A DNA stretch of 26,412 nucleotides. Source: Asterionella formosa (taxonomy: Eukaryota). Shown here in pieces: positions 6,216 to 26,412 of the stretch. The notes under the pieces were generated by a model. That model did no database searches and was not told where the DNA came from. It was given only the letters and a program-made list of their open reading frames with translations. How positions within the stretch are numbered: position 1 is the first letter of the stretch; each line of letters opens with the position of its first letter. The position numbers and the translations under genes are program-made. Where the stretch lies: contig NKIB01011728.1 of assembly GCA_002256025.1 (NCBI GenBank), positions 62,001-88,412 on the forward strand. The letters run 5' to 3'.

Positions 6216-6822
6216 TGCGGTATTGATGAGCAGCAGGCAGGTGAAGACAACGAAGTGATAAATTGTCTCACGAGAAACAAGTGTGCTGAGTGTACGTCCA
6301 GATAGATGCCATATGTAGGATTTAGTTCAAAGGCTACGGTACCTGGTGAAGTAGCCGGTCCAAAGCCAAGCGTGGAGTACCTGGTACCAGGTACCTACAG
6401 TAGGGCGGTTGCCTTGAAAACAACTCGTTGATTTGATGTCGTGGATAGCTGTTGCTTGAGGAATCTGGATCTGATCATGATGATACAGAATGTGGCAAGA
6501 AGAAACAACCACACCAACGCACGTCAATTGCTTTGCAGAAGACCCGGAAAAATGGGACTGTCAACAACACGTCACCGTCGACGTCAGCGCCGGGCTGAGC
6601 TGAGCACGTACAGCACGCCGATGACGAGGACATGGTTGAAATATCAGTATGCAGACATGTACCAGGTACCTGGTGAGCAAAATGAGGAGATGGAGTGCCA
6701 ACAACATGACGACTACATACCCATACCGGTATTTTGTACATAAAATACATTTATGTACGCCATACAAGCCCGGGGAAAAGCACACAATCTTTCTAACTTC
6801 CTTCGACAACAAGAAATTCGTC
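6216..6822. promoter_or_regulatory. Probable bidirectional promoter shared by PGR5 and the unknown plastid gene, with palindromic TACCWGGTA motifs
   Basis: 607-bp head-to-head spacer; perfect palindromes GTACCTGGTACCAGGTAC (6377-6394) and ACCAGGTACCTGGT (6661-6674). Confidence 0.55.
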
Positions 6823-11370: not shown

Positions 11371-11523
11371 CTGAAATGATATTTCTGTGTTGTTTGACCA
11401 GGCGTTTTACCATTTGTCGAACGCTGCCTTCATACTATCTCTCATCAACCGGTATATTCTTGTCTATTGTCTTCCATCTCTATCGGCGCTATGATTCCTT
11501 TCCCGACCACTGTCGGCTCCAAC

Positions 11524-13677
11524 ATGGCGAATGCGTTTTCCTATCTTTCGGTTGGACCATTGTGTATGGTAGCCCTCGACCCAGAGACTGATGTAGCTGT
11601 GCACATCAACGAGATGTTTGAAAATACCATAGGACAGATGTTCAAGATATCAGGGATGAAATTTAGTGCTCTGGCCACGGTGGGAGACCAGGATCGGACA
11701 TTGCTTGAAGGCGCTATCGAAGCGGTCAAGAGTGGAAAGACTGATAGGTCCAGGGCACGCAACGTTGAAATGATTACACTGGCAGGGGCTGGCTTGCCTA
11801 TCAAGAAACACTTTGACTGGACCGTGGGAAGAAGTTCAGAAGGCGACGTACTTTTGTTTGGCGACCCTTGCACTGATCAGGACATGGAACAACGGGCCAA
11901 GGATTGCGAGCTTGTAGACTTTTTCCAGAATGCGCCCATAGCTTTGCACTGGCTCAGCGGCGATGGAATCGTTTTGTGGGCCAATCAAAGGGAGCTCGAA
12001 GTATTGGGATATACGGCGGAGGAATACATTGGTCAGCCCATAATGAAGTTCTGCCCTGACGACGAAGAGATCGTCTTAGAGATTTTCAAGCAGCTGGGAA
12101 GCGGGAACACTATAAGAGATGTGCCCGTTCGATTCCGGGCGAAAGATGGGCATGTGGTAGACTTACTCATTGATAGCAACGTCAAGTATGACGTTAACGG
12201 CAAATTTGAACACACGCGATGCTTCATTCGCGACGATACGAAACGAAAGATTTCGGAGGCTAGAGCCAAGCTTCTTTTGGATGAAACCAAGCGCTCACTC
12301 AAGATGTTAGACAACTTTATGAGTCGTTCGCTACACCATTTGCGAACTCCACTTCATGTGCTTCAATGTACGCTAGACATTGTCTCGTCTAACCTATCCA
12401 AGCTCGCTACACGCCCAGGGGATGCAAAGTTGGCCACAGAGATCTTCGAAGAGAGTGTATCCTTGATGCAACAGGCTGGTATTCATATTGACAATGCAGT
12501 TGTCATGATCGATGATATAACCGATCTTGCTCGACTCGACCAAGGGGGAGTTTTCAATCTCAATGAGGAAATTATTCATCTAAAAGACCTTGGAAAGCAA
12601 GTGTTGGGTATGGTGTCTCCGCCAGCGACTTCTAGTGTCGAAGTAGCTTTGGAATTGATTGGCGGTGGTCCGGCCTTTCTATATACAGACGCGAATGTTC
12701 TCAAAAAGGTTTTACGTCACTTGCTTGAAAATGCCGTGCATGTGACGGAGCGCGGAAATATTACCCTGAAGATTGCCCACGAAGGCGACCGGTGTGTGTT
12801 CACAATCATTGATTCAGGGTCGGGCATCACAATATACAAACCTCCTTTAGGTGTCGGTAAAAACCTTCCCCCAATCTTCCAACGCTATCATCAAGAGCTG
12901 GTTCCAGAAGAAACGCAAGACTTTGAGCAAGCGACAACTCTTCGGGATAAGATCGAAAAAGGAATCAACAGCCATCGCCAAGATGGTATCGGCATTGGCC
13001 TCAGTCTAACATATCATCTCGTTAGGGCATTGGGAGGAGAGCTTTGTTATTCATCTGAACCTGGGCTAACACAGTTTTGGTTTTCTGTTCCACACGCTTT
13101 AGAGCAGCTTGCTTCTGAGAGAATCGTTCGCAAGGGCCCTCAAAAAAGGGAAATACCAAAAACCTCTGGAAATCGAGGATCTCTGGATTCTGCACCACTG
13201 AAAAAAGCCCATGTGATTCGAGAATCTGTTGTGCCTGACACATTAGTTTCAAAGCCAGACATCGTATGCAATGGGGTATGTTCATTGTATCCTCCATCGG
13301 TTCTGGTTGTTGAAGACGTTACTACCTGTGCAAAACTGCTTTGTATGTCATTGCGAAAAGCCAACTGCTCACCAACCTGGGTGGAGAATGGGCAACTAGC
13401 TATTGATCATCTCCGATCAAGCGCACCTGGAATGTACAGTCTCATTCTGATGGACTTGAGGATGCCAGTGATGGATGGACTCACTGCAACGAAAATCATC
13501 AAAGAAGAGCTTAAAATTACCATCCCAATTGTTGCGCTCACTGGTGATGCTGGGGAAGATACGAAAGCACAATGCATGGAAATTGGCTTTGATGAGTACT
13601 GCAATAAGCCTTTGAAGAGAGCTGATCTCCTTCGTGTCATTAAGCAGTATACTGGGTACAACCCTGGTTGTATATGA
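11524..13677 (+). CDS. Soluble hybrid sensor histidine kinase: degenerate PAS-like, PAS, HisKA, HATPase_c, receiver (717 aa from ATG 11524; alternative ATG 11491)
   Basis: PAS: DFFQNAPIALHWLSGDGIVLWANQRELEVLGYTAEEYIG...TRCFIRD. H-box FMSRSLHHLRTPL; N-box HLLENAVHVT; G1 IDSGSGI; G2 GIGIGLSL..LVRALGG. REC: LVVED, LMDLRMPVMDG, ALTG, NKP. No transmembrane segment seen; uninterrupted ORF. Confidence 0.93.
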   Translation: MANAFSYLSVGPLCMVALDPETDVAVHINEMFENTIGQMFKISGMKFSALATVGDQDRTLLEGAIEAVKSGKTDRSRARNVEMITLAGAGLPIKKHFDWTVGRSSEGDVLLFGDPCTDQDMEQRAKDCELVDFFQNAPIALHWLSGDGIVLWANQRELEVLGYTAEEYIGQPIMKFCPDDEEIVLEIFKQLGSGNTIRDVPVRFRAKDGHVVDLLIDSNVKYDVNGKFEHTRCFIRDDTKRKISEARAKLLLDETKRSLKMLDNFMSRSLHHLRTPLHVLQCTLDIVSSNLSKLATRPGDAKLATEIFEESVSLMQQAGIHIDNAVVMIDDITDLARLDQGGVFNLNEEIIHLKDLGKQVLGMVSPPATSSVEVALELIGGGPAFLYTDANVLKKVLRHLLENAVHVTERGNITLKIAHEGDRCVFTIIDSGSGITIYKPPLGVGKNLPPIFQRYHQELVPEETQDFEQATTLRDKIEKGINSHRQDGIGIGLSLTYHLVRALGGELCYSSEPGLTQFWFSVPHALEQLASERIVRKGPQKREIPKTSGNRGSLDSAPLKKAHVIRESVVPDTLVSKPDIVCNGVCSLYPPSVLVVEDVTTCAKLLCMSLRKANCSPTWVENGQLAIDHLRSSAPGMYSLILMDLRMPVMDGLTATKIIKEELKITIPIVALTGDAGEDTKAQCMEIGFDEYCNKPLKRADLLRVIKQYTGYNPGCI

Positions 13678-14071: not shown

Positions 14072-15835
14072 CTATACTAAGAAAAGCATCATCCTGACCC
14101 CTGGTACAGGGGTGGTTCCAATACATCTACGAAAACTGGTAGTACTAGGATGCATAATACCAATGAAAATTATATCAGATAGACCATACCACCTTGACCC
14201 TTCACCTAATTCCAATGCGTCTTTAACTGATAAGTCATTTCTTCTCCTTGTTTTCATTGTCCTTTTTCTTGTTTGCGGAGGAACTGCAATGATTTCATAA
14301 CTTATACAATCTCCATCCTGCTCTTTTCCTTTTGTGTTGCAATTGGCAGAAGATTGCAGCATGTTGTTTGCGCCTTTGACTGAGTTGCTTGTGGAAGAAG
14401 ACGGCAGCAAGTTGTCTGTTGCACAATCAAGCTGTAGCTGTTGAAACAAGTGATTACCCAGATTATCATTTTGATGCAGAACTTCATCTCCTGTATTGTG
14501 GCAGTAGATGTGGAAAGTCTGCTCTTTTCTCTCAGGTTTTTCATCATTGCTGCTGCTGATATCATAGTCACTGGCTTCCTCATTATCATTTGTTTGAGCT
14601 TGAGCACTGTCGCTAACATCAAGTCCTTCCAAAATTTCAGCATAACATTGTGAGAGGTCACAGCCACTGAAAGTGGTGTCACAGACATTGTCAACCTATG
14701 ACAATGACAAATCCATGAAGACAGAATCATTGGAGTCACTGGGATTAAGGGTCAAGTCATACATGGATTCCACAACAGCACGGAATCTACTGCTAGCTGC
14801 CACATCCATGCGCTCTTGGATAGTTGTGCACCTGCAGATGCTGTCCCTGGTATCTGGCATAATGGAATCAAAATCAACCCCAAAAACGGTTCTTATGCAG
14901 AAACGTCATTTTTGGCCCAACCACATTGTCGGTTCAGAATTTAATAAACTTCTCCGAGGTATTTGGTCCAGTTTGGACTTACTCTCCCTTTTGAACTTCA
15001 CTTGCTTGCAAGTACACTGTTCATTACACGTTTCACAGGTCTGTTGATGATTTCGACTGAACCCTGATCACTGGGCTTTTGGGGCCTACCAGTGACTGTT
15101 AGTATTTTTTGATTCCACCTTTTCAACATGCCTACAAGTTGTTCAGCTGTGAACTTAGAACCATTGTCTGTGTGAAAGATGTGTGAATATCCAATCATTC
15201 CAAAGAGAGAATTTATTTCAAAGCAGATGTGCTTTGTATTTTGTTTGGAACAGCTTAAATTGCATAAACCAGTGAATTTCACAACCATAATCAATTGCAT
15301 GAGCGACCTGACCATAAACTCTGCATCTTTCATTGGAGCGATAATCAATTAAATCAATTTGCATGCAATCACAAAATTCACCAGAATTTATATAACCACA
15401 TTGGGCTGCCTTAGATTTCAGAATTTGAGGATGGCCATGAATACAGCCACACAGGACACACACTGATAACTACATTCACGTGCTGTATTGTGATATTGTG
15501 AACTTGACGCTTCACCTCTCTCCTTGTAACAGGCAGATGATTTCAAGTGGCGAAGACTGCAGTGAGCATCATATATGGCATCGAACAATTCCTTGTGTCG
15601 AAGAATCTTTCTCCCCAATTTATCTCCTGCTTTCTCACCTTTTCTCCTCATAACATGGAGACTTCTTAACATATTGCCTTCTGTATCTTTCTTTGATCGC
15701 ACTGCATACTTTTTTACAAGCGAATAACCAATTTGATGTTGTCGCCATATCTCTGGATTATCCCAGTTTTCAATTATATACATAGCTTCATTGTATTTCT
15801 AATCAGTCATGTCACATGATCTAGCTTTTCCTGTT
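14072..15835 (-). mobile_element. Decayed Ginger-like (KRBA2/SCAND3-type) DDE integrase DNA transposon
   Basis: Successive frameshifted minus-strand ORFs carry an H2C2-like zinc region (DAIYDAHCSLRHLK...CP), D (MQIDLID), D (FHTDNGSKF) and E (GRPQKPSDQGSVE), then a low-complexity acidic tail. No RT, protease or LTR seen; termini not found. Confidence 0.8.
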
Positions 15836-16510: not shown

Positions 16511-16900
16511 CAAGACTCTAAGTATACGAGAATGCTTTTGCACGAACAAATTCTGATTCCAATATTTTGGCAATTGTTGAAAAAGCCGATCTGGTCGACT
16601 TTTTGGAGGATGATTCCTCTACATCTACAGGGTTTCATGAAGAAAATAAGAGATAGCCATGTACTCTATAACGTCAGCACTTAACTTCTGTAGAGAAGTA
16701 GCAGGTATCCCTCGTAGATTTTTTAAAAATCTTGATGGTCCCCTTTTTGACTATTCTTTGGATAGTTATGATTCCAAAAGGAATCACTGCCACTTCTCTC
16801 CAGAAATGAGGTCCTTACCATATCTGATTGTAGATCATACCCCTATGTCGAGGAATGACTGTATCTAAGCATATGCAAGGTGGTTGTATTGGTGAAAGCT
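16511..16900 (+). pseudogene. Copy 1 of an unknown small gene remnant (paralog at 25594-25996)
   Basis: NILAIVEKADLVDFLEDDSST aligns with DILEMVEKADFVEFSDNDSST in copy 2; downstream NFCREVA/DFWRETA and FSPE..HTP..NDCI/FSPD..YTP..EDCM also align. Confidence 0.6.
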
Positions 16901-17129: not shown

Positions 17130-17853
17130 GCAGTGGTGGCTCCGGTTTCCACATCGACTGGAGTTTTCCTGGTGCTACTGTCCTCCCATTGTCATCATCA
17201 TTCCTTGTTGCACTTGTTGCTCCGGTTTCCGCATCGACTAGAGTTATAGTACCTGTGGTATCCTTTTAATTTGTTGTTGCCGTCGTTGCTCTTGTTTCTG
17301 CATTGACTAGAGGTATGCCTGTGGTCTCCTTCTCATTTGTTGTTGCTGTTGTGATTGCTCCGGTTTCCACATCGACTGGAGTTGTGCCTTTGGTCTCCTT
17401 TTCATTTGTTCTTGCCGTCGTTGCTCCGGTTTCCGCATAGACTGGAGTTGTGCCTGCGGCCTCCTTTTCATTTGTTGCTGCTGTCGTTGCTCCGGTTTCC
17501 ACATTGACTGAAGTTGTGCCACCAGCAACCACCTTATCATTCCATGTTTCCGTCGTTGCTCCGGTTTCCACATAGACTGAAGTTGTGCCACCAGCAACCA
17601 CCTTTTCATTCCTTGTTGCAGTTGTTGCCCCACCGATTTTGGTATTTCAAGGTATAACTGCAGCAGCATTTTCATTTAAATACCCAAAAGCTACAGTGAT
17701 GAAATGTGTAAGAAAGGATTCTCTCATTCTCTGTGCGCCACCACTGCTGCTGACAGTGGTTTTGCCATCATTGGGTGTAGAGGCACTAGAAACACAGGAG
17801 AATTCACTCGCCACATACTCTTCATTGCGATTCTTTTTCTTCGAAGAACTCAT
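17130..17853 (-). pseudogene. Disrupted gene encoding Thr-rich 22-23-aa tandem repeats
   Basis: ORFs 17853-17647 and 17601-17266 share a frame and are separated by one TGA. Repeat unit VETGATTxxxNEKxxxGTTPVD; decays further toward 17130. Confidence 0.6.
17135..17630. repeat. Coding minisatellite, ~7 units mostly of 66-69 bp
   Basis: Core tccggtttcc(a/g)cat.gact.(g/a)agtt recurs at ~17141, 17221, 17290 (degenerate), 17359, 17425, 17491 and 17560. Confidence 0.9.
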
Positions 17854-18218
17854 GTCAAATCAGAGGTGCCTTTCCGGTATACAAGTACAAGATAAACAAC
17901 TGCAATCAATCAACAGATTTGGTTGTGCATTGACTTCTATTGAAGATTCACTGCATCTAGGTACATGTGCGTGGCTACAGGGAAGCATTTGATGAAGCTT
18001 GATAGGTTTCTGGTACCTTATAGCCCTGTTGCACACATTACAGACTTTGGATTTTACTCGTTTAGCCACCAATACAGAATGTATGTCCACTTACACACGT
18101 AGTTGTACTTATTCCCACTGTATCATTCCTGTCAGCCCATATTGTAACTAATGGCGAGTCACAGCATTTTGAGTACTGACAATCGTTCTGTACCAGATAG
18201 AGTGTTCCACTCTAAATC

Positions 18219-18954
18219 TTGTCTTTTGTCAGCCCAATCACCTCTTTCATGCCCATTGAGTATTTGATGTATATCTTCCCAAAAAGCCTCTTCCATACCT
18301 ATGAAGAAATTGTTTTGATTGGCGGATCTACAAAGGGACGCAATAACCTAAATGGAAACAGTTCATGCCAAGTCAATGGGTTGACGTTTTTCTGGAATGA
18401 TGAAACACTGAAGTACTACAGAGAGCTTCTTGTTGATTTTGAACAACAGAACGCAATCATAAAGGAACGAGTATCAAACAGTGAGGGTAAGCCTGACATT
18501 GAAGGTAGGCAAGACTATTTTCGTTATTAAGAGTTGACAACGCATGACTGGGATAATTACAATCAAGAACATAAAAAGTTTGTAAGGAATGATCCCATAC
18601 ATTTGGATACATCCAAGATCGTAAATTCTACCAACCTCCTTCTTGACTTTGAAGAAGAGGATGAGGAACTTGGCGATAGTAGTTGGCAGCCATTCAAACA
18701 TTTCAGAAAATAAAAAGATGTTATCTTATAAATAGCAATTAATAGCATTCAGTTACATATAAAACATTCCTTATCTGAACCTTCAATCAAAAATTTCATA
18801 AATTAGTCCATCCTGTTCGATCAGGTTGCACTAAGAACGACGAAAACTTTTGACTATGACCACAACAGTGCCTCCAACCAAAAACCCAGAAACTGAACAA
18901 GAACTTAGATGGTCTGAATGGCTGGAGTCACTTAGAAAAGATGTGGAAAGTACA
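18219..18954 (+). mobile_element. PIF/Harbinger transposase remnant, internally deleted and 3'-truncated
   Basis: 18856-18954 translates MTTTVPPTKNPETEQELRWSEWLESLRKDVEST, matching the Harbinger motif (ES.RKDVEC.FG.LK) that carries the catalytic E. Upstream acidic frame 18219-18713 with stops is inferred to be the N-terminus; the two catalytic Asp motifs were not seen. Confidence 0.65.
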
Positions 18955-19618
18955 TCTACAACGCCGATTATTGGTACAGCCGCCACAAAAAAGCTAGTCA
19001 AATATGATCACCCAAATTAAATTTTTAGGTGGCCCACTATGACAAATTGGGCTATACTGCTATACATAATTTAAAGGTATGATACTATCAAAAAAATGTG
19101 ATGCATCATTGAATATTTATGATAGGAGTGAACTAAAATATTTTCAACAACTTCCTAAATTTTTTATAAACCCACATAAATTTTGGGGCAAACTAACAAT
19201 ATTTTTGTAAGGCCGATCATTTAATTTCTGTATCAACAACCGCAATTATTGTTTTGCAGCAATCAACTATAATTTCTATGAAGAGCAAAGTAAAATGGGA
19301 ATGCTATTGTGAAATTAATATTGTTGTCATATCATTCAAACTATATTTACATTATTTGACTATAGCTATTGCAACCAATATAGTTGTAAAAATCGCTGAG
19401 CAGCATGCCGAGCTGCTCTGCTTGTTGCTTTGGTAACCTTCAATCAATTTTCTAGAAACAATCATCATAACACAACCTGTTTTGAAGCATTTCCTAATGA
19501 AATGTACCAGACTCCTCTAATTTAATAAAACGAACACGCAAACAACTGGCGCAGTCTATAGTGTTGTACGAGTGTGCCATGAGGACCTCCAATTTTACCA
19601 CCATTTCACAACCAAGTA

Positions 19619-19808
19619 CCTGGTACCAGGCGCATTCCAGGATTAAAAAGGTACATGAGGAAGAAAGCAAGGTTGCTGGTACCAGCAAGATGTGGTAATT
19701 TTGCTGAAACTAAAGATTTAGCTATCTTTATCCCAGATAAAAATGTTAGTTTAAGCAAAATGATCGCAACTTGCAAGGTATCAGGTAGCTGTTACCTGGT
19801 ACCAGGTA
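19619..19808. promoter_or_regulatory. Cluster of CTGGTACCAG-core palindromes inside the TE island
   Basis: CCTGGTACCAGG (19619-19630), TTGCTGGTACCAGCAA (19673-19688), TACCTGGTACCAGGTA (19793-19808). The palindromes are certain; regulatory function is inferred. Confidence 0.45.
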
Positions 19809-20183
19809 CTAGGTAATGGAGGGTGGCCCTCGCAATCGCTACAAGGTAAATTTTTATTTAGCTGAGATACTGCGATTCTTTTGACTATACAAAAACCTAG
19901 AATGTAGTTGTTGTGATCATCTGAAGCATCCTGCATCATGTCGTCTCAACCTTGACCATGACGAAAATAGCGGAAATCTCTACGAAAATTGAGAACGACG
20001 CTTACCTATTAGAAACATATATCAATCACAACAAAGGCAATACAACCGTAAGAGAATAGTTGCAATGGCACTGATATTGACAGCGAAAACTGCAATCGCT
20101 GATGGCACAATTTTTCTACATAATCTATTCCTGCTCAAATCAAAAAGACGCTGTTGCGAAGAGATTTGACATTTTTGCAGTTG

Positions 20184-20448
20184 CTATTACTACACTGGTA
20201 CTGTGAAACTGTAGGTTTGCCCTACCAGCATTTTCCTTCTTCCCCTTGTCTCAAGACACGGTCAGAACATGACGTGACTACGGTGAAACTGTACCTATTA
20301 CTACACTGGTACTGTGAAACTGTAGGTTTGCCCTACCAGCATTCCCTTTTTCCCCTTCTCTCAATACCCGGTCGTAACATGACATGGCTACAGTGAAACT
20401 GTACCTATTTCTAAGATGGTACTATGAAACTGTAGCTTTGCGCTACCA
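20184..20448 (+). repeat. Tandem repeat, ~2.4 units of 110-111 bp, core GGTACTGTGAAACTGTAGGTTTGCCCTACCAGCA
   Basis: Units start at 20184, 20295 and 20405; GTGAAACTGTA occurs twice per full unit. Confidence 0.95.
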
Positions 20449-20619
20449 ATCTAATGTCTGTCACTGAGTATGTTGGTGCTGCATTGCTTCCGATCCAGCA
20501 TATAGTAGTTGACAGACCATTATCCTTTTCTGCTTCCTTTTTCTGCTACAGTCACGTTTCTCTTGACTATTTGATATTGCTTCGCACGCTATCGATAGTG
20601 CAATATATCACTTGTTATC

Positions 20620-21923
20620 TTGAATGGCAAACGTTCCGAGTACTTCAAGGAATGGAACGATCTTGGTTGTGAAGTGGATACCGATAGCAGATTTTTCAAT
20701 CAGGAAAAACCTGTTTCTATGGTTATTTCATGTTTGTTCAAGAGACAACGGAAGAGCAAGGAACGACTCTTACCGGTTAGATACTTTGATCATGATGACA
20801 AAGGCAAGGAGACAAGACTAGATGACAGTGTCCTGGATTTTTTCTCATCAAACTCTACGTGGTCCTAGTAGAGTCTGGCTTGTTTAACAAAACATCATTT
20901 GAAATTTCAAGGAAATTTCAGAAACACATAGGACCAGCGATGATTTTTATGGAAAACTCACTTTCCTTGAGATTTTAGACTACATCAGATAGACAACAAT
21001 ATGCCACCAAATGCAGCAGAAATAGACGATTTCCTACGTTTCATCACCGATTCATTACGGTTAATCAAAACAGTTCTGAGAACCAATGACTTCCTTTGTG
21101 TTATTGACGGAATTGAACAAGAACGTGTGTTTTCCTTAATTTATCTTTCCTTCCAGATGAGTTTTTTGGAACAGAAGAAAAAGGCAATCCATTTTTACAT
21201 GTGGCGAAATCTTTTTCTTCCGAGAAAATCTATAGCCCTCCTATTCATCTGTCAAAACAAACATTCAAAACAACTGCAACATATAAAGCACTTGCAAATA
21301 CCATGGAAGGAAAAGCCATGCAAGTGTTTCCTTTCAAGGATTATACTGACAGCTTAAAATATTCAAAGCTGGATCTGCCAAATGTAAAGACATTTTGGCA
21401 TATGATAAAGTGCTTGTTAATACCAGGTTCTATTGATGTCTCCAGCAATAGCGACAGAGTTATGCTACACACTGCCACTATGTTGTTCACCAATTCTGGA
21501 AAGAATGGCTACCCAAAACCTCAGAAACCACACCAAGATTATACACCGACAGAATGCAAAAGGGAAACTCCTATGCCTTGGAGAATGATAATGTCCTTGT
21601 CTTTAGGAGGGAACTGCTTAAATATATGGGATAATTGTGCGGATGAGAAGCATGCAATACATTTGTCCATACCGTTCAAATTCATCTTTCTCATGCGTGG
21701 AGATATAGTCCATGGAGGAGCTTTGGATAATAGTTTAAAAAATGATGCTCTGCGGATTCATTTCTATTTGTCGCCAGCTATAAAGCAAAGAAATGGACAC
21801 TCTGTCGCCAAACTGAAACGACAGGATAACAACAAACACACTGATGGATCAATATGTGGTCATGACCAGAAATTCTCGTCATTCTTATTGCAACATGGCG
21901 GAAGAGGGTGGTCTAACTTATGA
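20620..21923 (+). pseudogene. 2OG-Fe(II) dioxygenase (PhyH-like double-stranded beta-helix) gene; 5' part disrupted, catalytic domain ORF (21201-21923) open
   Basis: PQKPHQDY (HxD, His codon 21531), MRGDIVHGG (His codon 21711), LRIHFYL (Arg codon 21753). Frame stays open upstream to ~21117; a frameshift near 21115-21122 links it to ORF 21001, and ORF 20620-20868 may be the N-terminus. Confidence 0.75.
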
Positions 21924-22047
21924 TCTAATTTCAAAAAAAATCCAAAAATAAGTTTTTGGGTTTTGGTTTGGATCAACGGTTAGTAACGGCTGTAAAGTAA
22001 CAGTCTAAAACGTAAGAAATTCATCGATGGCTTGAGGAATACCACAA

Positions 22048-22081
22048 TACTGGTAGGGCAAACCTACTGTTCGAGAGTACC
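22048..22081 (-). repeat. Inverted copy of the tandem-repeat core
   Basis: Reverse complement matches 20197-20230 at 29/34 positions, including an exact 18-mer (22050-22067 vs 20211-20228 and 20322-20339). Confidence 0.9.
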
Positions 22082-22202
22082 GACAAAGTATACAGTATTC
22101 TCACATGAATTTTTAGTTGGTACCAATGCGTATCATCATGAAACTTAGTTACTAATGAAGACGAAGTCATTTCATTCGATGACTGATGGTATTGGTTGAC
22201 AA

Positions 22203-25060
22203 ATGTTATCAGGTGCTACACAAAGGATCTATAACTGGTGTCCACTATGTGACTACAAAGTGAGGAAAAATCGGAAACCATCGAGATTGCATCACAATAT
22301 TTGCTCGAATCGTTCTTTCGTACCATTTGGTTGGTGTCGTGTTTGTTATCAAGAACACCAGCTAGATCCCTTCATCGTTGCATCTTCGGAATTCTGTTTC
22401 AAAACATCCTCTGAACACCTTAGCACGAGCAGACAAACATTGGAAGGCATTCAGCAACCAGCCTGTGATGTTTCTTTCCCCGAAGGAAATAATAGTTTCC
22501 AAGATGACGGTGACATTATCTCGACAGAGGACCGAGAAGAGACAATACAGTTTGAATCGATATCCGTAAAAACATACAATATTTTGAAAACAATGAACAA
22601 AGAAGGACTTTTAATGGATCAATCAAAGCATATTCCTCTGCCATACAACTTGTCTATCCCCAGTAGAGAAACAATAGCAATGGACCCAATCGAGTTAGAG
22701 GTAATGTTATTTATCAACGAACATTTCTTGCCACCATCATACTTTGATCTTATAATGAATTGGGCTTTCAAGGCTCGTGATGATGGCTATTTCCAGAAAA
22801 AGCAACGTGCACCATCCCATCAGACATTAAAAAAATTTAATGCATCATTTCCTCCAACTCTTAAAGGGGGGAAGTTTTTGTTAAAACAATGGCGAAGTGA
22901 ACCTAATTTAGGATTTTAACTACCCTGAACTCTGCATTATTTCGATCCTGTTGGTTCCATGCTACAAGATACTGACGTGATGCAACATTTTGTGTACTAC
23001 CCGCAAGAGAAACTCACAACTTGCGGAAAATGCATCTACGATGAAACTACTTCTGTAGAATGGTTTCACTCGGCTTTTAATGAATCCAACGCTTCAGAGG
23101 ATGGGAAACTAAAAGCTGTCCACCTATTTGTAGAAATTGGACTTTTCAGTGATGAATCCGCAATCGACAAAATGAAGAAACATTCTGAAAATCCATTGTT
23201 AATAACAATGCTCAATTTGTCTATCAAGTGCAGGAAAAAGGTGAAAGCATGGCAATTGGTGCCGTTGCTACATGATATAGAAGTTAGTGACATATACAAA
23301 AATTCAAATATATCAGATTTGAGTAAGGAACGGTTAGCTCAAAATCATTGGTCTACGGGATTTTTATTGGAACCATTTCGTGATCCAAACAAATGTTATG
23401 AATTGTTTGTTCATGGATTGGGTAAAACGAAAGTTTTCTTTCAAATTGGCATGATCATTGGTGATACAGATGAACACAACAAAATATGCAGTTTTCGAGG
23501 AGGGAATGGAAAATACAGACTACATACCTGTAGAGACTGTATAGTTACTACTCCGAACTCTGATAATCCATATGCAAAATTCGAACCACGCCTCGTGAGC
23601 TACACTAAACCATATCTGGAATGGGTTTTGAAAAACATTCATCATTCAGATGGAAAGTTACCAAATTTACCTGATTCCTTTGATATAAAGCAAAATCGCA
23701 GATATGCAACCAAAGATGAATGGTGTCGACAAATATCACAAAACACAGTTATTCCAGCCCTTTTCTACCACGATTTTGGTGGTGATAAGCAGGGAGTCCA
23801 TGATGCTACCTCTTTCGAAACTCTACAGCGATTTCTCATAGGAATGTTGACATAAATTCTAGAATCTCTGTACAATTACAGAGCAGTCACTGAAGTTTGG
23901 AAACAATTTAAGTGGAGTCCGATTTTACTATATTATTATGGTTAAGTATTTCATTGAATGACAATCTGAATATGGGTGTATACACCGAAGAATGAATAGG
24001 CATCATAGACAAACAAATTCGGAGGTATCTTGCTGTGACAAAAGCTATAACTGGTGAACAACGTGAATTGGTTTCTTCTCTTGCATACCGTATACCCAAG
24101 TTCCATGGAATGACTCATTATCCTCATTTGATTAAAAAATTTGGAACACCTATCAACTTCTTTGGTGGTATCCTGGAATCATTCTTGAACAAGAAATTAA
24201 AAGGGCCAAGTAAACAAGTCAATGGTCATGCACATCGTCTCCAACATGATATATTATTGAGGAGTTTTGAAGGAAGACAATATTCACTTGCCAGGAAAGT
24301 TCTCTTCCCCAGTGTTTACACCATGTCACTGTTGGTGAGCGACGGAGTTACTGATACAGTTCAATCAGATGAATCTGAATTTGAAGATACAGATTCGATA
24401 AATACTAGAAAGGAAGCAGAGGCATCCATTGTTGTGAAACCTAAACAATTATCTTTCTCAGCGGAGAAAGACCAATGTTAAATTTGGTACATTTCCGGCG
24501 GTATTAAGCAACTGTGTACACAACGAAAACGCTCAGATGGGACAGTATACTACAGTTTGTTTCACCCAGACAACGAACATGGTAAACCTGCCGTTTAGAA
24601 ACTTGTAAATTCTGCCGTACAGCGGTGCAAGGACAAAAATTCTACTGGAACTACATCTGTAGAGATAGATCGGATCAATTTCTATTATCATGTTACTGTA
24701 GTCTCCAAAGATGACGGTACGAAAACAATTTTAAGATGTAATCCAAAATAAAACAAACAGGACAAGAATCTTCATCAATTAAATTCTTGGTTTGATTCGG
24801 TTGAAGTGAATTGGGAAAGTCGAAATGGGAAAAATTACAGTGTACCAGAAAAATTACTTCTATCAATGGAGTAAAACTGATTTGAACCAAAAAACGTCGA
24901 CAGCCACTTTTGGTCCACTATAACTAAAGAACTAGTATGAGATTGCAATGTACAAGTTCAAACATTTCTTTCCTTTAATGCCAAGAAAGAACTATGTTTA
25001 AAAAGCAGATTTGTTATCAAATTACGAATGATCATCTCGAACCGTGTGATTACCCCATTT
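22203..25060 (+). mobile_element. Plavaka-type (CMC/CACTA-related) transposase pseudogene
   Basis: N-terminal CxxC..H zinc-finger-like motifs; IYDETTSVEWF; IGLFSDES (D); PLLITMLNL...R....AW; IIGDTDEH..IC (D); CRDC; RIPKFHGMTHYPHLIKKFG..NFFGGILES (E); C-terminal LRCNP...WFDSVEVNW...VPEK. In-frame stops at 22917, 22926, 23853 and 24479, plus a frameshift at ~23.9-24.0 kb. 3' limit approximate. Confidence 0.8.
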
Positions 25061-25593
25061 TTTTTAAGGTTGCTGTCTGTCAACCCCAAGGCAAAAATTA
25101 AAATATTGCTTAGGGTTGCCGAAATTCCCTGGAACTAAGAATTTATATGAGCTATTTTCGAATGACATGATTCCATTTGAAATATTCAGATAAGTGGAAT
25201 TTTGCGCATACGTACATAGATTCCTTTTCGAATTCGCTAAATATACATCTAGACATTGTACATCGCTAAATATACATGTATCAACAATTTTGTTTCTTGA
25301 ATACAACCCGGCAGCTAGGCAAATATTTGAAAGTGCACTCAAAGAATGGTACATGTATGATGTCCAATGATGATCATCTACTGGTACCCGTAGTAGATAT
25401 AGTACTGGCCTACCGGAACAATCAAGGAAATGTTACATGTGTATTCAATGTGGCTGCCGGTGTGGGTTTGCAATTCCTCGCACAATCAGACAGTGGTAAG
25501 TATTTCGCAATAGCCAATCATTACATATATAATATTCGCGCACTTACAATAAAATTTTTGGTACTGGAAATTTTGTGACTAAATATTGCATCA

Positions 25594-25996
25594 CAAGACT
25601 CTGATTCAGATGATGACATTTCAGTGATAAGTGGTTCTGATTCTGATATTTTGGAGATGGTAGAAAAGGCCGATTTTGTCGAATTTTCGGACAATGATAG
25701 CTCAACGTTCGCTGAGTCTGAAGGCGATTTAGATAAATAGGTAAGTTTCAAATAGCATCAATATATGACTTCTGGCGAGAAACTGCAGAAAGGAACTTCG
25801 GTTTTTATACTATGCCAAATTAAGTGATTTTCCCCCGAATTTTCGTGTCTTTTTAGCATAGTTAAGAAACCGAAGATCCTTTCTACAGTTTCTCGCCAGA
25901 TCCTATCTCCTGAAGATATATAGTGTTGACCTATACCCCTACTTTGTCCGAAGACTGTATGTAAGCATATGGAAAGGTTGTGTATTGGTGAAAGCT
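25594..25996 (+). pseudogene. Copy 2 of the unknown small gene remnant (paralog at 16511-16900)
   Basis: Protein-level alignment with synonymous-type differences; the last 44 nt (25953-25996) are 37/44 identical to 16857-16900. Confidence 0.6.
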
Positions 25997-26067
25997 CCGT
26001 TGAGCGTTATACATCTTGATTTTCTACGTAAATAGTAGCTGTTTGATTAGTCTGACTCAATATTTCT

Positions 26068-26098
26068 TTTCAACCCTACCTCAAGCTAGGGGTTGAAA
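26068..26098. repeat. Hairpin TTTCAACCC-N13-GGGTTGAAA
   Basis: Perfect 9-bp inverted repeat, 26068-26076 / 26090-26098. Confidence 0.6.
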
Positions 26099-26412
26099 TG
26101 CAGCAACCTCAAAGTTTTTTAAAGGTATTGCGTAAGAAAAGGCGAGGGAGGACATGAGACAGCATTCAAAGACAGACTCATGAATTCTTCGTCATGATAG
26201 GACAGTGATTCATAACATTATTACCGGTAATTATTTCTTTCTCTGATCGTGTCTGTGAATTTTTTGTCGGAATGACATACGCCTTAGGGTCGTTCTTATC
26301 ATTTTCGATTTGGTATCATTTTTTTTGAAAAAGTATCATGTAACGGCTACTCGATTTAAACCGAAAAAATCCATTCTCCACAAAAATAAAAATGAAATTG
26401 TATCACCAAAAA

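Follow-up and report, generated by a model that had tools for sequence, protein, structure and literature searches.

A probable mosaic of transposon remnants in Asterionella formosa joins an oxygenase-like accessory gene of a Harbinger-type unit to a decayed Plavaka transposase

Contig NKIB01011728.1 of Asterionella formosa (NCBI GenBank assembly GCA_002256025.1) includes a stretch of 26,412 nucleotides (nt), positions 62,001 to 88,412 of the forward strand, in which a dioxygenase-like gene ends shortly before a Plavaka-type transposase gene; the whole of this stretch is called the window here and is numbered from its first letter. An earlier note, made from the letters alone, had taken the two genes for one Plavaka-type transposon carrying a dioxygenase dependent on Fe(II) and 2-oxoglutarate (2OG). 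Our analyses indicate that the stretch is probably a mosaic of transposon remnants rather than a single element, in which positions 20184-21936 would be a fragment of a multi-copy, three-gene Harbinger-type unit, and positions 21933-24862 would be a decayed Plavaka-family transposase copy from another repeat family. The reading of a transposon with an oxygenase-like accessory gene survives, with the Harbinger-type unit as its carrier and a putative enzyme fold.

Results

A probable Harbinger-type unit in related loci

A metagenome scan returned seven real loci (L001-L007) with copies of the dioxygenase-like gene; an eighth, L008, was an 18-residue chance match and was dropped. The features of the window that bear on the comparison are listed below, P0173 being an intact version of the gene's product of 433 amino acids (aa).

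18796..18864, minus strand: 69 nt from the 3' end of the dioxygenase-like gene, in inverted orientation (P0173 residues 411-433; blastn, 77% to 21855-21923; also in L006)
18868..18954, plus strand: remnant of a PIF/Harbinger DDE transposase, 30 residues from the C-terminal part of DDE_Tnp_4 (tblastn, 87% to L002:1312-1584)
20184..20448, plus strand: tandem array of 2.4 copies of a 110-nt unit, upstream of the dioxygenase-like gene; the 18-mer GTAGGTTTGCCCTACCAG is present in every unit, either as such or in diverged form
20624..21923, plus strand: dioxygenase-like gene, a frameshifted copy of a 433-aa orphan gene (tblastn with intact P0173, indels against other copies, ratio of nonsynonymous to synonymous substitution rates, dN/dS)
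21932..21936, no strand: breakpoint between two repeat families (loose contig ends at 21932, "before", and 21933, "behind"; blastn)
22046..22081, minus strand: single inverted copy of the array motif to the right of the breakpoint, on the Plavaka side (86% complementarity, exact 18-mer core)
22203..24862, plus strand: pseudogene of a Plavaka-family (EnSpm/CACTA-related) transposase, with seven in-frame stops, one frame change and ~100 residues missing

By blastn, all seven loci are homologous to the window solely between 20183 and 21936, apart from two matches further left, at 18862-18953 in L002-L004 and at 18392-18952 in L006. Five loci reach the 3' end of the gene (L001, L002, L003, L004 and L007; L005 and L006 end earlier), and in all five the stop codon is followed by the same sequence, foreign to the window, which encodes not Plavaka but a convergent third orphan gene. 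Intact forms of this third gene are 408-418 aa long (P0167, P0187 and others) and stand in clusters of 46 and 78 members; neither P0167 nor P0187 has a Pfam domain. Upstream of the dioxygenase-like gene and on the same strand, L002-L004 encode a PIF/Harbinger DDE transposase, the C-terminal part of which (L002:1312-1584) matches PF13359 (DDE_Tnp_4) at 2.7e-10 over profile positions 97-158, with a weak match of the preceding part (L002:561-1304, 0.032, profile positions 2-88); the C-terminal transposase open reading frames (ORFs) of L002 and L004 also match PF04827 (Plant_tran) at 9e-8. The related loci hold, in other words, the DDE_Tnp_4/Plant_tran transposase by which an element is assigned to PIF/Harbinger. 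Elements of this superfamily typically encode a second protein of Myb/SANT type and end in terminal inverted repeats flanked by a 3-bp (or TA) target-site duplication.

The three genes are bracketed by a ~95-nt imperfect inverted repeat that encloses ~5.7 kb, one arm of which lies upstream of the transposase (L002 148-241) and pairs with the other upstream of the third gene (L007 2009-2102). The best reading is a unit of ~5.7 kb, presumably mobile as a whole, that consists of a Harbinger transposase, the 433-aa gene behind its 110-nt array and the convergent orphan gene of ~410 aa. All that would remain of it in the window is the 30-residue transposase piece, the array and the frameshifted copy of the 433-aa gene; neither the third gene nor any further Harbinger transposase was found there by tblastn, and no continuation of the unit beyond the Plavaka remnant was found by blastn or tblastx.

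The left part of the window also shares positions 18392-18864 with L006 (1-467, at 92.7%). This segment ends in the inverted 69-nt copy, which abuts the Harbinger remnant, an arrangement that is not present in L002-L004 and represents a rearranged subfamily structure.

A breakpoint between two repeat families

Contigs from DNA and polyA-RNA sequencing runs were aligned to positions 17800-26412 of the window, and they locate the point at which the two families part. None of the seven loci is homologous to the window to the right of 21936. One RNA contig goes on past 21933 exactly like L001, and of a 1163-nt DNA contig from another study only the first 282 nt align, to 21652-21933. From the opposite side, two RNA contigs and one DNA contig (from a further study) match the window to the right of 21932 and differ from it on the left. 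The two left-hand consensus sequences at this position agree at 21 of 30 positions, hence the right-hand family runs further left in other copies, and an 18-nt piece of the alternative left flank does not occur anywhere in the window, even with 3 mismatches allowed. Since both families are cut short at 21932-21936, their neighbourhood here is probably secondary, resulting from deletion or rearrangement. In run X1, contig depth sums to 200-700k to the left of the breakpoint and to 27-94k to its right, and X3 and X4 differ in the same direction, which is weak evidence because depth is not copy number; among the aligned DNA contigs, the Plavaka-side family is less abundant than the dioxygenase-side family.

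The Plavaka-family pseudogene

Downstream of the breakpoint, three stop-to-stop ORFs follow one another on the plus strand (22200-22919, 22929-23855 and 23996-24481). They belong to one decayed gene, interrupted by in-frame stops at 22917, 22926, 23853, 23993, 24479, 24596 and 24749 and by a frame change near 23912, where ~100 residues of its relatives are missing. With 11 relatives as tblastn queries, the homology falls into a first part from 22473/22680 to ~23915 in one frame and a second from 23912 to 24820/24862 in another. The proteins with which the gene aligns, over ~700 residues, are 640-1190 aa long and 21-36% identical to it; among 1.84 billion representatives, HMMER with 22929-23855 as the query found 148 matches at E<=1e-3, 55 at <=1e-10 and 5 at <=1e-30. 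Of 22 long relatives chosen from among these (575-1399 aa), 15 pass the Pfam cut-off for Plavaka (PF18759), one falls below it (21.4 bits) and six are without a match. The earlier note's call of a Plavaka-type transposase therefore holds for family membership, by way of these relatives, and not for the ORFs of the window themselves, which match no Pfam family at E<=1. Judged by this transitive identity, 22203-24862 is a genuine but distant Plavaka-family pseudogene.

A polyA-RNA contig of 1755 nt is identical to the window over 22580-24334 and runs unspliced across the stops and the frame change; thus introns do not rescue the Plavaka frame. The 5' end of this copy is cut at 21932, and its 3' end was not located within the window.

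Copies, selection and transcription of the 433-aa gene

The copy of the 433-aa gene in the window is likewise decayed, so that the earlier note's description of both genes as decayed was accurate. Aligned by tblastn with intact P0173, the gene starts at 20624 and undergoes at least three frame changes before 21117, from which point on it is open (stop-to-stop ORF 21117-21923 in the standard code, plus strand, 268 aa). Single-base indels at 20724, 20841, 20944 and 21129 separate the window from other copies in the contig alignment. Its reading frame is under purifying selection, as judged by the Nei-Gojobori method: in the frame of the ORF, dN/dS is 0.33 against both L001 (p=6e-5) and L002 (p=5e-5), compared with 0.86-1.05 in the remaining two frames against the same loci.

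Intact copies exist in three slightly differing 433-aa versions (P0173, P0175 and P0179; 90% cluster of P0001, 82 members). The family is highly repeated, up to 88 distinct, variant-bearing contigs of one DNA run covering a single position of the window. Two word-indexed searches of 5.8 billion proteins recovered its homologues as a single narrow family at 73-89% identity, except for a frameshifted fragment (P0165) at 48%, and no distant relatives outside it; a scan of viral contigs with P0173 gave nothing. PolyA-RNA contigs from the same sample cover 20680-21831. Two other stretches, 19240-19527 and 25576-26151, have equal or higher DNA depth yet no RNA cover, which argues against simple carry-over of DNA; contig depth gives no expression level.

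The tandem array and its shared motif

The array upstream of the gene has four units in L002-L005. Within it, a 36-nt stretch stands at 20197-20232 and again at 20308-20343, and the earlier note's observation of a repeat motif shared by the two genes was borne out: the same stretch recurs inverted at 22046-22081 with an exact 18-mer core. The window contains four matches to the array motif against 0.01 expected. Each unit also carries the heptamer GTGAAAC twice, which we take, as a lead only, to resemble the half-site of bacterial parS. Folded as single-stranded DNA, one unit gave z-scores of -0.6 to -1.0 and no special hairpin. At 20183-20185, contigs of one RNA run and one DNA run follow the window as far as 20185 and part from it there, from which the left edge of the array appears to be another junction between repeat families.

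Is the 433-aa protein an oxygenase?

Fe(II)/2OG oxygenases are recognised by a facial triad (HxD/E...H), an Arg or Lys that binds 2OG, and a double-stranded beta-helix fold. The earlier note had reported a dioxygenase domain with complete HxD...H...R ligands, and the motifs are indeed present: HQD at residues 139-141, the His of DIVHGG at 199 and the Arg of RIHFY at 213 (numbering of the 268-aa ORF) all lie inside the open part and are kept in the intact copies. The identity of the domain did not stand in the same way, having no profile or structural support, and we regard the 433-aa protein as a putative, somewhat probable PhyH-like Fe(II)/2OG oxygenase.

Language-model features provide the sole positive evidence. 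In an atlas of such features the window ORF scores 0.95 with a recognition of 2852, a level that shuffled proteins reach in about 1 of 100 cases; its matches include one cluster named "2OG-Fe(II) oxygenase family protein" and one set in which 51% of members contain PhyH, and all ten of its best family-bearing matches agree in family or clan. The matches of P0001 are weaker and fall on PhyH, 2OG-FeII_Oxy_3 and HalD clusters, with a recognition of 2178, below the tool's mark of 2300. The only functional hints of the gene are thus PhyH- or 2OG-oxygenase-like, in keeping with the earlier note's view that its motifs resemble PhyH rather than TET/JBP.

Other results lend an oxygenase no support. The pattern HxD..(40-120)..H..(8-20)..R occurs in 1476 of 5000 composition-matched shuffles of the ORF (30%). 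Scans of the window ORF, P0001, P0004 and P0173 against Pfam, NCBIfam and PHROG gave no meaningful match. The comparison with Tet_JBP and PhyH profiles that the earlier note proposed gave no match either: Pfam-A hmmscan assigned no family to the window ORF (E<=1), P0001 (E<=0.1) or intact P0173 (E<=10), Tet_JBP being unmatched by all three and PhyH (PF05721) by P0173 at E<=10. Sequence searches of the PDB, with single sequences and with a 20-sequence profile, returned chance-level aminotransferase matches only, and in AlphaFold2 models the mean predicted local distance difference test score (pLDDT) was only 28 (5 sequences) and 41 (20 sequences), values that do not warrant a search by fold. 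Finally, the family profile was compared by hhalign with PhyH, 2OG-FeII_Oxy_3, AlkB and TauD, and with Cupin_2, adh_short and Abhydrolase_1 as controls, using domains from five bacterial genomes. It matched the oxygenases no better than the controls, scoring 16.2 (P=0.2) against 15 bacterial PhyH domains and 15.0 and 19.8 against unrelated controls; true superfamily pairs themselves scored only 12-21, so that this test is without power either way.

These results bear on a rival explanation, in which the 433-aa protein is a real transposon gene with another role, for example as a DNA-binding or structural partner of the Harbinger transposase, and its motif is due to chance. We consider this a serious possibility, though not the one we expect. 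The frequency of the pattern among shuffles, the failure of profile, PDB and fold searches and the low recognition of P0001 all favour it, as does the requirement of canonical Harbinger elements for a second, DNA-binding protein, as stated in the available sections of PMC12730594. On the other hand, the two atlas look-ups concur on PhyH and 2OG-oxygenase clusters, with the first at 2852 and a top score of 0.95; of the best local hhalign matches, one aligns HQD of the query with that of the PhyH consensus and another sets the DIVHGG region against the C-terminal part of that family's profile, neither match being significant; and the third gene of the unit could already be the DNA-binding partner.

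One composite element, or two families?

The second rival holds that Plavaka natively carries the dioxygenase-like gene as an accessory and that the window is one decayed composite copy, as the earlier note had proposed. The ~280-bp spacing on one strand that it cited is real, the next ATG-led frame opening at 22203, 279 nt after the upstream stop; the 36-nt motif recurs just upstream of the transposase gene; and published precedents exist in red-algal Plavaka elements with PAG3 and some fungal Plavaka with TET/JBP (as far as the available parts of bioRxiv 10.1101/2025.02.11.637652 and PMC12730594 describe them). In addition, a 494-nt RNA contig with 25 differences (~95% identity) spans 21878-22368, so that one or more other copies, alleles or strains share this junction and a minority of copies may be composite. 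Carriage by Plavaka is not borne out by the related loci, however. All five that reach the 3' end of the gene run into the convergent third gene, the transposase upstream is of Harbinger type, and neither the 3.2 kb upstream of the gene in L002 nor the 1.9 kb downstream of it in L007 hold any Plavaka homology. The two families part at 21932-21933, other Plavaka-side copies have different and mutually related left flanks, of which the 18-nt piece is absent from the window, and contig depth differs 5-10-fold between the sides in three DNA runs. We therefore judge a native Plavaka composite to be decidedly unlikely.

Beside the second contig over the junction, further points count against a mosaic built around a Harbinger-type unit. 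The inverted recurrence of the array motif on the Plavaka side is unexplained if the two families are unrelated, and the motif was not found in L001, L006 or L007. The 5.7-kb unit is stitched from overlapping metagenome contigs, in which no termini or target-site duplications were seen. Furthermore, L002-L005 and L007 are 97-99% alike and may thus be one locus sampled several times; with L001 at ~90%, the five loci that reach the gene's 3' end amount to only two sequence types.

That the dioxygenase-like gene belongs to an ordinary host gene family with coincidental insertions as neighbours is most improbable: intact copies, a frame under purifying selection and RNA contigs over the gene would suit such a family, but each site is covered by dozens of distinct contigs in one run, many copies are frameshifted (L002-L005 and the window), the gene keeps its place relative to the Harbinger transposase, or to what is left of it, in three versions that have diverged from one another (window, L006 and L002 type), and the searches of 5.8 billion proteins found no homologues beyond the narrow family.

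Other elements in the window

The finding is limited on the right by a further repeat, which follows the Plavaka remnant:

25062..26114, no strand: high-copy element of ~1.05 kb with terminal inverted repeats (depth jump and loose contig ends at 25082)

It contains an internal 83-nt hairpin (25737-25934), and parts of it recur at 16551-16622 and 16837-16900. An Rfam scan of 17800-26412 gave only sub-threshold matches resembling plant miRNAs, on the hairpin at 25771-25900. We discarded a possible 8-bp target-site duplication flanking the element, since the T-run in question may be part of the terminal repeat.

Between the Harbinger remnant and the array, positions 19611-19814 hold an element of ~200 nt whose terminal inverted repeats (20 nt, 95% complementary) are built on the palindrome CCTGGTACCAGG. 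All four runs, RNA included, have a peak of contig depth there, and the element looks like a high-copy miniature inverted-repeat transposable element (MITE). Palindromes centred on GGTACC (TGGTACCA) occur at 6382, 11275, 19621, 19677, 19797 and 22118, six against 0.34 expected, and another lies upstream of the Harbinger transposase in L002 (194-211); such palindromes may mark the ends or the binding sites of one of this genome's transposon families.

Further left, ORF translations on the minus strand at 14998-15798 resemble a retroelement integrase core and neighbouring parts, probably those of a decayed long terminal repeat (LTR) retrotransposon, judging from the translations. A 759-aa open frame on the plus strand at 11398-13677 reads like a hybrid sensor of PAS, histidine-kinase and receiver domains and is presumably a host gene. 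Overlapping minus-strand ORFs at 17266-17675 encode tandem repeats rich in Thr, Ala and Glu in a region of strong AT skew.

Discussion

Fungal transposons (TET/JBP) and, as has become known very recently, those of red algae (PAG3) can carry anti-silencing enzymes of their own. For the stretch studied here, our data do not bear out a dioxygenase carried by Plavaka, and the identity of the enzyme is a hypothesis. The 433-aa protein is most likely the product of an accessory gene of the Harbinger-type unit. If it is a PhyH-like Fe(II)/2OG oxygenase, comparison with the known systems would assign to its first 170 residues the binding of the neighbouring tandem array, and to its PhyH-like C-terminal domain the oxidation of a mark on the DNA or chromatin of the element, by which silencing would be countered.

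In its fullest form the proposal is that a freshwater alga has an intact, transcribed and lineage-restricted Harbinger-type transposon of three genes, whose PhyH-like Fe(II)/2OG oxygenase attaches to the array upstream of its gene and erases or changes a silencing mark; the same enzyme may protect the unrelated Plavaka family in trans, the identical 18-mer site being present beside the Plavaka transposase gene. This would be a third case, independent of TET/JBP in fungi and PAG3 in red algae, of transposons recruiting a 2OG oxygenase, unless the enzyme is distantly related to PAG3. We think this whole unlikely to be correct in every part. The PhyH-like candidate comes ready-made with a candidate binding array and with intact, transcribed copies, and the 433-aa protein is small and expressible, which would open such enzymes to substrate tests.

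Our searches of the literature on diatoms, Plavaka, Harbinger and oxygenases found no such element described from diatoms or other stramenopiles, and Kojima 2025 (PMC12730594) was the sole match for transposons combining Plavaka and a dioxygenase. According to the portions of the literature available, Plavaka has already been reported from red and green algae, and the available text of a paper on the green alga Auxenochlorella mentions it once. The pseudogene in the window is like the Plavaka family (PF18759) in aligning with ~700 residues of relatives, 15 of 22 of which pass the cut-off, and differs in that it lies below Pfam significance. With PhyH/PHYHD1-type proteins (PF05721), the 433-aa protein shares HQD, a later His, an Arg 14 residues after that His and feature matches to PhyH-containing clusters; it differs in the absence of a profile match.

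The fungal transposons that bear TET/JBP include, in the accessible sections of PMC12730594, a three-gene Harbinger lineage, PHISTA, and PlavakaB families; the third protein of the TET-bearing Harbinger lineage is described there as being without Myb/SANT, and Plavaka elements as ending in TGT..ACA or CATCA..TGATG with target-site duplications of 2-3 bp. The Harbinger-type unit resembles these systems in combining a transposase, an accessory protein of (putatively) 2OG-oxygenase type and a third protein without a Myb/SANT domain, and in the presumed role of escape from silencing. Unlike them, its protein has no Pfam match, hence no Tet_JBP, its motifs being PhyH-like, and its host is an alga-like eukaryote of freshwater samples rather than a fungus.

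The closest analogue of the 433-aa gene, likened to it by description only, is PAG3 (Plavaka-associated gene 3) of the giant Plavaka elements of red algae (the Bostrychia preprint, bioRxiv 10.1101/2025.02.11.637652). In the part of that preprint available to us, PAG3 has no InterPro domain, a weakly ParB-like N-terminus and a C-terminal part like a PhyH-type 2OG oxygenase (HHpred, 2OPW_A, E=0.016); it adjoins tandem arrays and also occurs in Zisupton, Mutator and Fanzor-encoding elements. A ParB-like N-terminal domain was undetected in the 433-aa family by Pfam and PDB sequence searches, and no partners corresponding to PAG1 or PAG2 were seen here. The carrier also differs, appearing to be a PIF/Harbinger-type unit beside which Plavaka is a separate fragment. 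Both would nonetheless be accessory proteins of transposons with no recognised domain, a C-terminal part that is only weakly PhyH-like and an extra N-terminal part, and both are encoded beside a tandem repeat array. If confirmed, a candidate of this kind, an orphan with PhyH-like features carried by a Harbinger-type unit in a further lineage of algae, would widen the theme that TET/JBP and PAG3 have established.

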